This document shows positions 28-56,701 of a stretch of DNA of 64,000 bases, piece after piece. The position numbers and the translations under genes were made by a program. A model generated the notes under the pieces. The model did not search any database, had not been told where the DNA came from, and saw only the letters and a program-made list of their open reading frames with translations. Each line of letters opens with the position of its first letter. Within the stretch, counting starts at the first letter, position 1. Source of the DNA: Eledone cirrhosa (taxonomy: Eukaryota); contig OZ024759.1 of assembly GCA_964016885.1 (NCBI GenBank), positions 34,472,001 through 34,536,000 of the forward strand, written 5' to 3'.

Positions 28-190
28 ACCAGAGTGCTCGATACATAGGGTAGTAGAGTGGGTAATAGGAATAGAGTCAGGACCCCGACGGCTGAGCTCC
101 GACCGTTTCAACAACTATATCTGACTGCGTTCAGATCTAGCTATCGAAACGGCCGGAACATAGCCGTCGGGGTCCTGACTCTTTTCCTAT
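28..190 (-). mobile_element. Fold-back cassette, family A (Penelope-like pseudo-LTR fragment with 3' half of a hammerhead) in (TA)n
   Basis: Imperfect inverted repeat ~67-190 (taggaatagagtcaggaccccgacggct ... agccgtcggggtcctgactcttttccta). Each arm has GAAACGG..CCGTC (hammerhead stem III + GUC). Homologous to 24171, 31719, 32661, 45630, 56541. Confidence 0.7.
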
Positions 191-264
191 ATATATATAT
201 ATATATATATATATATATATATAAAGAAAACGTTCGCTCTACATGGCTGAATACAATAAAAGTG

Positions 265-470
265 TTTCGAATATTAATAATAACATTCGATTCGTTTGCA
301 ATTATGCAAACAAGCCTCATTTTTATAGCCATGTCAGTAGAATGAACCCTTCATTCTTGCTCTTGTCTTGAAGAGCAAGAATGAAGGGTTCATTCTACTG
401 ACATGGCTATAAAAATGAGGCTTGTTTGCATAATTGCAAACGAATCGAATGTTATTATTAATATTCGAAA
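265..470. repeat. Perfect long inverted repeat (100-bp arms, 6-nt loop) between (TA)n runs
   Basis: 265-364 is the reverse complement of 371-470; loop gtcttg. Confidence 0.95.
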
Positions 471-615
471 ACCTCAGATTACATTTATTATTATATATAT
501 ATATATATATATATATATATATATATATATATATATATAAGTATTGAAATTTCCGTTGGAGACAGAAAAGGTCATAAAAATGAAGAGTGCTCTATGTAAG
601 TATCAGAGCAAAATT

Positions 616-823
616 TAATGTATAAAAATCAAAACAATATAATTACCTCATTACCAGAGGTTTCCCGAATGAGGCGAATACGAAATAAACGACTTCATTC
701 GTTCGTCAGACGAGGCAATATTGCCTCGTCTGACGAACGAATGAAGTCGTTTATTTCGTATTCGCCTCATTCGGGAAACCTCTGGTAATGAGGTAATTAT
801 ATTGTATTGATTTTTATACATTA
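616..823. repeat. Near-perfect palindrome (104-bp arms, no loop) containing mirrored hammerheads
   Basis: Centre caat|attg at 719/720; one mismatch seen; flanked by (TA)n. Confidence 0.95.
720..797 (+). ncRNA. Type I hammerhead ribozyme (mirror copy on - strand at 642-719)
   Basis: Stem I ttgcctcgt/atgaggtaa; core CTGACGA 730-736; stem II cgaatga/tcattcg; GAAA 775-778; stem III ACC-tct-GGT; cleavage triplet GUA (787). Confidence 0.85.
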
Positions 824-840
824 TATATATATATATATAT

Positions 841-53041: not shown

Positions 53042-53992
53042 GTTAGGTTGTATATATATATATACAACCTCGTATATATATATATATATATACAACCTAA
53101 TATATATATATATATATATACAACCTAATATATATATATATATATATATACAACCTAATATATATATACATACAACCTAATATATATATATATATATATA
53201 AATACAACCTCATATATATATATATATATATATACAACCTAATATATATATATATAGAGATATACAACCTAATATATATAGATATATAGATATACAACCT
53301 CATATATATATATATATATATATATATATATATATATATATATATATATATACAACCTCATATATATATATATACAACCTCATATATATATATATATATA
53401 TATACAACCTCATATATATATATATATATATATATATACAACCTCGTATATATATATATATATATACAACCTAATATATATATATATATATATATATATA
53501 TATATATATATATATATACAACCTAATATATATATATATATATATATATATATATATATATACAACCTAATATATATATATATATATATACAACCTAATA
53601 TATATATATATATACAACCTAATATATATATATATATTATATATATATATATTATATAATACAACCTAATATATATATATATATTATATATATATATATT
53701 ATATAATACAACCTAATATATATATATATTATATATATACAACCTAATATATATATATATATTATATATATACAACCTAATATATATATTATATATATAT
53801 TATATATATATATACAACCTAATATATATATATTATATATATATATACAACCTAATATATATATATTATATATATATAGACAACCTAATATATATATATT
53901 ATATATATATATACAACCTAATATATATATATATATTATATATATACAACCTAATATATATATATATATTATGTATATATATACAACCTATT
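53042..53992. repeat. (TA)n array punctuated by CAACCT (roughly 28 units)
   Basis: Direct reading; the first flank is the inverse, ttaggttg. Confidence 0.95.
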
Positions 53993-54424
53993 ATATATAT
54001 ATATTATATATATGTATATATTCATATATATATATATAGCGTCGGTATGTGGGTCTGTATTGGTTATGTATGTTTGTATGTATTGGGTATCTGTGATGGG
54101 TGTCTGTGTTATATATCTGTATGTATGTATGTGTTTGTATTATTGTGTTTTTATGTGTCTGTGTTGTTCTGGTTGAGTGAACAGACGTATGATCAAAGGC
54201 TATCCAACCATAACCATACCCGTCTGACTTCCTCATTGTCAATGAACAGTGAATCATCTTATCCAACATATCTCCTCTCTAACATAGTCATCAGAGATTT
54301 CAGCTAGATTTCGTAACTATTTCTAGCAATACAAACCAGCAATATTAAGGATCATTTGTTCCCTTTCACCAGTCAAATGTCCGTTGCCAAGACTATCCGT
54401 GTGGCGCCCAATTGCTGATAATAG

Positions 54425-55040
54425 TGAGAGATGGGGAGAGATGGATGCAGTGACAGTGAGAGTTTGGTTCCTCTGTGTTCGGACCTGGTGTATATGAAAG
54501 ATGGGGAGAGCGGGAGAGATGGAGGCAGTGACAGTGGGAGTTTGGTTCCTTTGTGTTCGGACCTGGTGTATATGAGAGATGGGGAGAGCGGGAGAGATGG
54601 AGGCAGTGACAGTGGGAGTTTGGTTCCTTTGTGTTCGGACCTGGTGTATATGAGAGATGGGGAGAGCGGGAGAGATGGAGGTAGTGACAGTGGGAGTTTG
54701 GTTCCTCTGTGTTCGGACCTGGTGTATATGAGAGATGGGGAGAGCGGGAGAGATGGAGGCAGTGACAGTGGGAGTTTGGTTCCTTTGTGTTCGGACCTGG
54801 TGTATATGAGAGATGGGGAGAGCGGGAGAGATGGAGGCAGTGACAGTGGGAGTTTGGTTCCTTTGTGTTCGGACCTGGTGTATATGAAAGATGGGTAGAG
54901 CCGAAGAGACGGAAGCAATGACAGTGGGAGTTTGGTTCCTTTGTGTTCGGACCTGGTATATATGAGAGTTGGGGAGAGCGAGAGAGATGGAAGCAGTGAC
55001 AGTGGGAGTTTGGTTCCTTTGTGTTCGGACCTGATGTATA
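54425..55040. repeat. 78-bp minisatellite, about 8 copies
   Basis: cagtgacagtgggagtttggttcctttgtgttcggacctggtgtatatgagagatggggagagcgggagagatggagg; period 54448 to 54526. Confidence 0.97.
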
Positions 55041-56540
55041 TGTATGTTTCACAGGCACTCACTCACACTGGGTTTCCTGGCATTGAAATTGAACAGAAAA
55101 ATCAAATATATTCAATATAAAAAAATCTCACAATATCATGAAACACTATCGATATTATATAGAAATTATTTAGTAGTATTTAATAAAAACAAGACACTAC
55201 TAGAGGGAACAAAAACAAGATAGAAAACAAAGGAAATAAAATGAAAAACAAAATAAGGGGATCAAACAACGATAGAAAGGGAGAAGGGTAGAGACAGAAA
55301 TTTCACCCCAGCGTGGTCGTTGCCTCAGCCGCATCCTGCCGCGCATAAAATGGCAAAGGTTACCGCAGAGAATGACCCGAGACGCCCTTTGCAACAGCCA
55401 CCCCACCCCACCCCACAAGGCTTCTTCCTGAAACTGGCCTCCTTATTTTCGTCATTCGTTTTGGATTTATGATACCTTCAAGACTTCACTCGTACTTAAA
55501 GAACATATTGCGGTTGTGAAACAATGAAATGGTGGGGGTACATAACCAAGACCAGGAGATATGTCACTGAATCGAACCGGTGATGTTACTGGTATTAATT
55601 CAATTATTTAAAGACACCAAGATAGCATTTCATTCAGCCACAGTGTCTGTATGTATTTCTAATAGTCATTGGGGTGTGACATATGGCGTGTCTTTGGTAT
55701 TTAAGCATGTCAATGACCATCCATTTTCTGTCTGGACACAAACGATTTCTTCCAGAGAGACTGACAGACAAACTGGCAGAGGGATATACGAGACAATTGA
55801 CCCCAGTACTCGAGTGTTACTTTAGTTATTACCTGGGAAACGGTTAAAATCGATGTTGACTCCCGTGGGATTTGAACTGAGAATGTGGAGAGCCTGAAAT
55901 AATGCCACCACTGCCAGCACTATCACCACCATCACCAATAACTTCAATATTTGAAAGACAAACTACTTACAACATCAAAACCAGCACCATCGAAATAGCA
56001 CCAACTCCACCACATGCAACACCACCTACACAATCAACAACACCACCACCAACACCAGCACCACCAACCCCACCACCCCCTACAACACCACCACCAACAG
56101 CAACAACAACAACTGAAAATGAACAACATAAAACAGAAACAAGACCAATACTCTCTAAAAACGAAATTAAAATAAGTTTTCTAGGCAAAGGAAATATTTT
56201 TAAAAGCGTTAATTAGCTAAAATGCAATGTTATAATAAACACAACACACATATAAATATATATACACATACACATATATATGTGCACACACACACATATA
56301 TATATATATATATATATATATATACATACCCACACAGGTTATATATACATAAGTTGTATATGTATTTAAGTTATATATATTATGTACACCCAATTTCAAA
56401 TTTAAGTATTTGTTTTTTTGTTTTTATGTGTATAGTATATGCTATATATACACATATATATATGTATATATACACACACTATATATATATGTATACACAC
56501 ACATATATATATATATATATATATATATATATATATATAT

Positions 56541-56701
56541 AACGAAGGAAATGTGGTAAGGAACCAGGTGGACCATAACGCACCAGAGTACTCAATACTT
56601 AGGGTAGTAGAGTGGGTAATAGGAAAAGGTATGACCCCCGACTGTCCAGAAATAAACGTCGAAACGGCTTGAGCTCTGTCGTCGGGGTCATACTTTTCCT
56701 A
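56541..56701 (-). mobile_element. Fold-back cassette, family A
   Basis: Near-identical to 24171-24272; + strand arm GAAACGG-cttgagctctg-TCGTC-ggggtcatacttttcct. Confidence 0.8.

Follow-up and report, generated by a model that had tools for sequence, protein, structure and literature searches.

We analyzed a 64,000-nt stretch of the genome of Eledone cirrhosa (GCA_964016885.1, contig OZ024759.1, positions 34,472,001 to 34,536,000 of the forward strand; hereafter the window) and found that a bulged hairpin, RCUC-Y...R-(U,N)-GAGY-NCU on the hammerhead-sense strand, recurs near the ends of Penelope-like retroelements (PLEs). Judging from the sequences and the open reading frames (ORFs) linked to them, the motif is part of Hydra-clade PLEs and of their non-coding derivatives. 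The U-bulged hairpin occurs twice in the pseudo-long terminal repeat (pLTR) or 5' leader of these elements, and each copy likely binds the reverse transcriptase (RT) and sets an internal cDNA start ~3-8 nt upstream of the stem. The RTs of PLEs are the sister group of telomerase, how such elements transpose is poorly known, and we know of only one biochemical study of it. With a short, conserved, and duplicated hairpin at a set distance from either end, one knows precisely which bases to mutate, and how the one-sided tail and the inverted insertions arise can be tested directly. The hairpin also constitutes a simple tag that classes more than 100,000 short (TA)n-embedded repeat copies of the genome as Hydra ends.

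Occurrence of the hairpin motif

A preliminary description of the window had listed 20 sites with an RCTC/GAGY pattern whose outer pair covaries. All 20 sites were present, in place or within ~10 nt, and this pattern stood; what it had missed are the U bulge, the inner covarying pairs, and the second hairpin. Our strict descriptor (outer R-Y paired, a 2-nt bulge starting with U, and at least two inner pairs) is matched by 15 of the 20 sites. The remaining five are imperfect: the outer pair is A.C at position 31, the bulge has 1 nt at 31901, the first inner pair is C.A at 34089, ACAC replaces RCTC at 47917, and 34236 reads GAGT-GTT, its 3' part being another repeat. The motif is commoner than background: we found 17 strict matches in the window versus a mean of 0.87 and a maximum of 3 in 60 local shuffles. 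The looser wording of the preliminary description yielded 34 matches versus a shuffle mean of 19.9 (maximum 30), and this form is thus only mildly enriched by itself.

The genome of 3.0 Gb is rich in (TA)n, and short unique islands sit between the TA runs. Genome-wide, one generic U-bulge subtype gave 134,882 matches versus 1,037 for the reversed control, and one exact 27-mer was found in 30,907 copies versus 0 for its control. We then used an 864-kb sample, composed of the window and 80 stretches of 10 kb (30 of which neighbor the window), where many separate TA-junction families hold the motif 25-80 nt before the TA run. Recurrent RCTC..GAGYRCY motifs with a non-U base at the bulge position were also seen and may be variant hairpin families.

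Rfam searches of nine hairpin-holding loci returned a single tRNA-like match and nothing else, with no hammerhead match at gathering score. On the window, the 150 matches listed out of 283 were all sub-threshold and mostly microRNA models on simple repeats. No description of the hairpin was found in the text, as opposed to the figure images, of the literature within reach (mostly outside subscription journals), and term searches of the available portions of PMC8557442, PMC4209133, and PMC3846280 gave no mention of it. The hairpin is a cis element of a known kind that is apparently undescribed so far.

Element ends coincide with two hairpins

The hairpin is present twice (HP1 and HP2) between the hammerhead and the ORF start, in the order hammerhead-HP1-HP2-ATG. 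This arrangement is found in tandem arrays of Hydra ORFs with RWR, DKT, and CxCX5C, and two twin patterns yielded 2,695 versus 231 control matches and 489 versus 7 matches. In the 11 families with twin references, the distance from HP1 to HP2 equals the tail length (76-146 nt). HP2 lies about 15-80 nt before the ATG.

We collected 2,982 TA junctions, of which 319 mapped to 20 references; 40 of these were dropped as internal TA tracts. Among the 188 junctions of the 864-kb sample that map to the 11 twin-reference families, 165 lie 1-14 nt upstream of HP1 (73) or HP2 (92), where 12.9 would be expected if junctions were uniform. Genomic ends coincide in this way with the two sites that bound the tail, and the best-fitting distance from junction to hairpin is 3-8 nt. 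Because inserted copies end a few letters before either hairpin, the hairpin likely tells the element's enzyme where to start.

The two sites are also combined in a non-random manner. Of 61 head-to-head inserts, 14 had an untyped end and were dropped. Mixed HP1 and HP2 ends were found in 44 of the 47 fully typed inserts (two had both ends at HP1 and one had both at HP2), whereas 49% mixed inserts would be expected (P = 5e-11). In a second insert set the ends were mixed in 13/13. Two caveats apply: a reference that is tail-only defines the second end by its own limits, and inserts that are fully symmetric may be under-assembled. The predominance of mixed ends suggests that a single insertion makes use of both sites, each for one strand of the target.

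Structure and covariation of the hairpin

We counted bases and pairs in 31 hairpins of this genome (20 HP1 and 11 HP2, one natural copy per family), and locus L358 was excluded from the covariation and 56-hairpin counts below. The proposed covariation of the outer pair was confirmed: across the 20 HP1 families this pair is A-U in 16 and G-C in four, hence Watson-Crick in 20/20, a result reached by 3 of 20,000 shuffles when relatedness between families is ignored. With a bulge of 2 nt, inner pairs in the 31 hairpins total 95 versus 6-16 at other bulge sizes. The first inner pair of HP1 is U-A in 11 families and C-G in seven, and the third is Watson-Crick in 17 versus 5.0 in shuffled sequences. 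HP2 is almost invariant (GCUC-C...G). Considering 56 hairpins, a purine precedes the bulge in 56/56 and is paired in 53, and a U is found two bases before GAG in 55; the GAG/CUC pairs are part of the search descriptor. The loops closed by the stem range from 8 to about 108 nt. G.U pairs outnumber A.C pairs (17 versus 4), which favors the sense strand as the one that folds. We also searched the 31 hairpins for a conserved lower stem beneath RCTC/GAGY and no register stood out.

Hydra-clade elements carrying the motif

Eight families are tied to Hydra ORFs, and their proteins share pairwise identities of only 27-56% (rows F4 and F12 of the alignment being disregarded), which rules out one recent family as the source of the motif. 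The cassette families had been described as unrelated; they are diverged in sequence, yet the linked ORFs indicate that all are Hydra-clade PLEs and derivatives of these. The single ORF of 784-830 aa presents YRDD and a C-terminal IY...YIG region of the GIY-YIG endonuclease type. RWR, RWK, RWT, or RWH was found in eight families and DKT in six, with GKT in one copy and one fragment too short. The linkers CNCRNKANC and CNCPDRSIC match CxCX5C, and no two cysteines lie between IY and YIG. RWK-like motifs, DKT, CxCX5C, and the absence of CCHH are features of the Hydra clade according to passages of Craig et al. 2021 (PMC8557442), and the elements studied here also show (TA)n insertion, tandem and inverted structures, and a one-sided tail. 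Pfam gave no significant match for the F3 protein or the Hydra fragments. An AlphaFold model of a Hydra protein (pLDDT 93) gave RT-level matches only in a structure search (TERT, DRT9, and retrons; E about 1e-8 to 1e-5), with no PLE entry among the 50 ranks listed and with the arginine motifs not placed.

Two coding elements account for several of the window copies. A young element of the F3 type has an 830-aa open frame in a 6.7-kb tandem unit (RWR, DKT, and CxCX5C, no CCHH), and its end is a relative of window 23519-23729. Three of its terminal copies stop just before the hairpin and three about 46 nt beyond. The ~4-kb 3' region of this element (L051:2200-6300; L141-L143) is largely (TA)n/(TG)n microsatellite, so that F3 insertions may bring their own new targets. 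A second coding Hydra element, whose unit measures 3,542 bp, has family A (window 31, 24215, 31776, 32706, 45673, and 56586) as its end, and a wholly non-coding family A is thereby ruled out. The early idea of a Helitron or DNA-transposon end hairpin was dropped after the RT linkage was seen.

A hammerhead match of the CUGANGA..GAAA type was found upstream in 9/20 references, some references being short and some matches maybe due to chance. By eye, the hammerhead of family A, which is highly abundant (L261:2130-2235; window 24260-24310), presents a non-canonical core, in which C-UUGAGAAGA replaces CUGANGA, and a long stem II. The window copies of this family keep the hammerhead 3' half only and fold back in or near stem II. 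A canonical CUGANGA core near the GAAAC of family A was rejected, as it gave only 38 matches, mostly junction artefacts by eye. Finally, a non-coding 617-bp partial tandem in the window holds both hairpins, and one copy (window 909) ends at (TA)n just before the HP2 position. Non-coding elements that keep both hairpins would be mobilized in trans.

Other animals, metagenomes, and a control family

Because several references came from patterns containing the T, we made an independent test on loci picked by protein. An alignment of 115 proteins fetched 78 metagenome loci; 29 without a usable start or upstream DNA were dropped, leaving 49 in 26 groups, and the bulge was not imposed. The hairpin was found in 18/26 groups, with two hairpins in eight; shuffles gave 0.17, and each set of coding windows 0-1. 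Seven groups score on the reverse strand too because the motif is nearly palindromic. Among 26 metagenome hairpins, the best bulge is 2 nt in 25 and its first base is U in 26, and the inner pairs with a 2-nt bulge total 80 versus 0-18 at other sizes. Leaving out the simple-repeat rows of L320, six of the eight informative TA junctions are found 6-10 nt ahead of a strict hairpin, and the remaining two, by eye, ahead of degenerate ones. The suggestion that the motif be sought in PLEs of other animals was borne out for three of six published Hydra consensus sequences (coral and sea cucumber): by eye, the hairpin is present in Hydra-2_Amil and Hydra-2_Ajap and twice in Hydra-1_Ajap, whereas Hydra-1_Amil, Hydra-1_Obim, and Hydra-1_Crog show it in degenerate or unclear form.

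As a control, we used a Neptune-like family, its clade assigned from motifs by eye, which has a CCHH-type endonuclease, a hammerhead, and TA targets. The hairpin is absent from the 550 nt around the ends of this single family, and it looks clade-specific as judged on this one control. In a Neptune-like PLE (L265:1993-2060; L209-L228), the open frame reaches about 1,240 aa and includes an Asn-rich stretch, the two ends are fixed at a spacing of 60 nt, and the tail overlaps the beginning of the frame. We also observed a TAGCG(A/T)T(A/G)AGGTCTTCAAAATG-like word (L105, junction clusters 4 and 75) in two or more TA-junction families that lack the Hydra hairpin, and this word may serve another PLE clade as the corresponding signal.

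Proposed role and alternative explanations

The preliminary description had proposed a structured signal near element ends, on the hammerhead-sense strand and shared by diverged families. Our results agree with this part, and RT binding or priming, one of the roles it had put forward, is the one that we infer to be likeliest. The sense RNA would fold into the bulged hairpin, whose bulge U may form a U.A-U triple and hold an arginine by analogy with 7SK ASM3 and HIV TAR. Hydra proteins possess two conserved arginine stretches, at 34-39 and 486-496 (among 115 proteins, R35 is conserved in 90%, R37 in 100%, R486 in 93%, and R488 in 94%), and the candidate ligand is the conserved stretch RR-RW-K or RxR..W-NPP. 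On the template, the hairpin would stand just 3' of each start, where a bound RT could anchor. Both strands of (TA)n would be nicked by the endonuclease, two RT molecules, one per hairpin, would use these nicks for priming, and their cDNAs would become joined head to head. What lies between the two starts would then be the one-sided tail. The most specific version of this model, in which two TAR-like arginine-sandwich hairpins load two RTs at once, each priming from an opposite-strand nick, so that concerted double priming gives the head-to-head one-tailed insertions that characterize Penelope elements and a ~20-nt hairpin acts as a portable "start here" signal, is possible, and we put it forward tentatively.

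Several observations weigh against an RT-positioning hairpin. Its start and binding roles are read from genomic sequence and predicted folds; RNAfold finds the hairpin in many, not all, of the 31 local folds, and the stems are weak (mostly -2 to -14 kcal/mol). The inner pairs of HP2 barely covary in this genome, and covariation was assessed without phylogeny correction because the protein tree of the families does not resolve their relationships. CT follows the stem in 54/56 hairpins, a conserved NCU that the model does not account for. Many twin references came from patterns already holding the T, and patterns without a U bulge are also somewhat enriched (12,007 versus 5,235). As for the ends, 23 of the 188 junctions lie elsewhere than HP1 or HP2, and in the window 909 family, which has a tail-only reference, 12 of 16 junctions lie ~130 nt upstream of HP1, HP1 itself having none. 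The likeness to TAR spans few bases and may be a convergence without arginine binding. Moreover, the Neptune-like family is two-ended (13 and 11 of 25) yet without the motif, which indicates that the hairpin is dispensable for two-ended tails in general.

The same end positions would be obtained if the hairpins directed where the RNA is cut or ends, just upstream of each stem, and the RT then started at the new free 3' end by ordinary target-primed reverse transcription. A point of comparison is PAc, a Poseidon element of Anolis carolinensis for which passages of Frangieh et al. 2024 (PMC11167929) report RNA-seq read ends that coincide with the start sites, as RNA cutting would predict. The same passages report, however, that PAc starts internally on unprocessed RNA in vitro, and independent cutting alone does not predict mixed ends in 44/47 inserts; we consider this explanation improbable. 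The hairpins might instead be protein sites for cis-packaging or for translational control of the ORF, the starts being set by AT-rich linkers that anneal to nicked (TA)n. HP2 is indeed close to the ATG, A/T makes up 81% of the 8 nt upstream of the hairpins, and many junctions have 2-5 nt in common with the TA run. However, the remaining pLTR is also AT-rich yet rarely an end, and the offset from the stem is similar across families and metagenome elements; we give this alternative a small chance. It is quite improbable that the signal acts as DNA, either as a hairpin in the sense single-stranded cDNA or as a duplex site that the GIY-YIG endonuclease reads, and determines the sites of cutting or resolution of intermediates. 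The sequence GAG-YN-CTY is nearly palindromic, sense single-stranded DNA could also form G.T pairs, the tail of the Drosophila virilis element is reported to be required for endonuclease recognition of plasmid DNA (passages of PMC11167929), and an antisense-template model is argued in parts of PMC3846280. Stem pairing that spans 8 to about 108 nt of loop and keeps a fixed U bulge contradicts a duplex site, the center of the palindrome is mismatched in 33/56 hairpins, and the template of PAc is sense RNA according to the portions of PMC11167929 cited above.

The least credible explanation is the switch or pseudoknot that had been suggested initially, in which GAGY would alternate between the upstream and a downstream RCTC or partner the hammerhead. 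The NCTY that follows GAGY is conserved and complementary to GAG, but its partner is directly adjacent: without a loop between GAGY and NCTY, and with the central two bases unpairable in 33/56 hairpins (C.A being commonest), a switch is very unlikely, and the eighth base is A or G in 7/56. A fixed ribozyme partnership is doubtful as well because the spacing to the hammerhead varies, the last GAAA(C/A) lying 32-226 nt from HP1 where such a word is found, and because the hammerhead-bearing Neptune-like family lacks the motif.

Comparison with known systems

The elements described here resemble the Hydra clade of Craig et al. 2021 in having a hammerhead, in targeting (TA)n, and in forming partial tandems and inverted copies, and differ in their tails (76-146 nt versus 30-40 nt) and units (3.5 and 6.7 kb versus <3 kb), as far as the passages of PMC8557442 tell. 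These passages do not mention a hairpin, and "stem-loop" has 0 occurrences in them. A one-sided PLE tail was already known qualitatively (parts of PMC8557442 and PMC3846280). In vitro, PAc cDNA starts at two internal sites bounding an optional tail, downstream of the hammerhead and with an AT-rich target, as we propose for our elements, and a PAc dimer is predicted; the available passages of PMC11167929 define no signal at these sites. PAc belongs to another clade, and in our elements, unlike in PAc, the leader holds both sites, with a conserved hairpin just 3' of each.

The secondary structure is shared with the arginine sandwich motifs of 7SK and TAR: a paired purine, a bulge starting with U, then G-C and A-U pairs. 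In passages of Pham et al. 2018 (PMC6189040), U23 of HIV-1 TAR forms a triple with A27-U38 after the paired A22, and ASM3 of 7SK SL1 presents A39, the bulge U40-U41, and A43-U66. The bulge has 2 nt in 7SK ASM3, as here, and 3 nt in HIV-1 TAR. TAR continues into the same GAGC/GCUC stem as the Hydra hairpin (TAR sequence from the available part of PMC13425243). In contrast to both RNAs, the strand order of the Hydra hairpin is permuted, with the RCUC arm 5' and the loop closing the other side, and NCU follows the stem. This likeness implies no homology.

Structured template elements that position an RT include the R2 3' untranslated region, the 3' stem-loops of long and short interspersed elements (LINEs and SINEs), and the boundary elements of telomerase RNA. 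Like the 3' recognition elements of retrotransposons without long terminal repeats (non-LTR), the Hydra hairpin is a structured cis element common to non-autonomous partners; those elements are single, whereas here two copies would set two starts that are used together. Non-LTR retrozymes are non-coding tandem derivatives of PLE pLTRs according to passages of bioRxiv 10.64898/2026.07.22.740005, in which the hairpin goes unmentioned. They resemble the 617-bp unit at window 843-1580. Most of the copies in the window, by contrast, are not tandem retrozymes and derive from coding elements as 5'-truncated ends.

Features of the window

Table 1. Hairpins, hammerheads, and inserts located in the window (strand "." denotes inserts listed without orientation)
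Position	Strand	Feature	Descriptor or basis
33..59	-	HP1, family A relative, outer pair A.C mismatch	
586..609	-	HP1 in tailed arm of head-to-head insert 540-821	strict
661..709	-	Hammerhead core CUGANGA..GAAA upstream of HP1 586-609	
730-778	+	Inverted hammerhead copy, arm ending before hairpin	
911..939	-	HP1, second unit of 617-bp non-coding partial tandem	strict
1346..1450	-	HP2, long loop, read through in 617-bp tandem; absent from preliminary description	strict
1528..1556	-	HP1, first unit of 617-bp tandem	strict
4208..4248	+	Hammerhead core upstream of HP1 at 4300	
4300..4323	+	HP1	strict
4377..4425	+	HP1, family F0, Hydra ORF linked elsewhere in genome	strict
12787..12824	+	HP1, family F4 (twin hairpin seen elsewhere; no ORF found)	strict
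13056..13167	+	Candidate hairpin, family not assigned	strict
23519..23729	+	3' end, relative of autonomous Hydra family F3: hammerhead 3' half, HP1, tail, then (TA)n	
23605..23683	+	HP1, family F3	strict
24172..24358	.	Head-to-head insert of family A within (TA)n, tailed at left end, tail-less at right end	by eye
24217..24243	-	HP1, family A	strict
31776..31802	+	HP1, family A	strict
31903..31925	-	HP1 variant, 1-nt U bulge	
32196..32271	+	HP1, long loop (32186 in preliminary description)	strict
32708..32734	-	HP1, family A	strict
34091..34112	-	HP1, single inner mismatch	
34236..34263	-	HP1, family F2; other repeat replaces sequence 3' of GAGT	
39423..39729	.	Family F15 head-to-head insert, ends at HP2 and HP1	
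39482..39504	-	HP1, family F15, Hydra ORF linked elsewhere	strict
39799..39820	-	HP1	strict
45675..45701	-	HP1, family A relative	strict
47919..47941	-	Degenerate HP1, 5' arm ACAC	
56542..56699	.	Family A head-to-head insert, ends at HP2 and HP1	
56587..56613	-	HP1, family A	strict

Some other features lie beside these copies. Near-perfect palindromic islands within TA runs at 224-490 and 34287-34390 are probably truncated PLE fold-back junctions. A frequent TA-associated repeat at 34152-34235 (24 copies, junction cluster 3) adjoins and truncates a Hydra end, and it is also found beside an F3 end in L144. A minimal type I hammerhead at 45446-45560 (+) has a PLE-like 3' end, which terminates at (TA)n and lacks a hairpin; this is probably the tail-less end of another family. 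Finally, tRNA-derived SINE-like fragments were recognized by eye at 42375-42460, 48100-48290, and 55790-55900.

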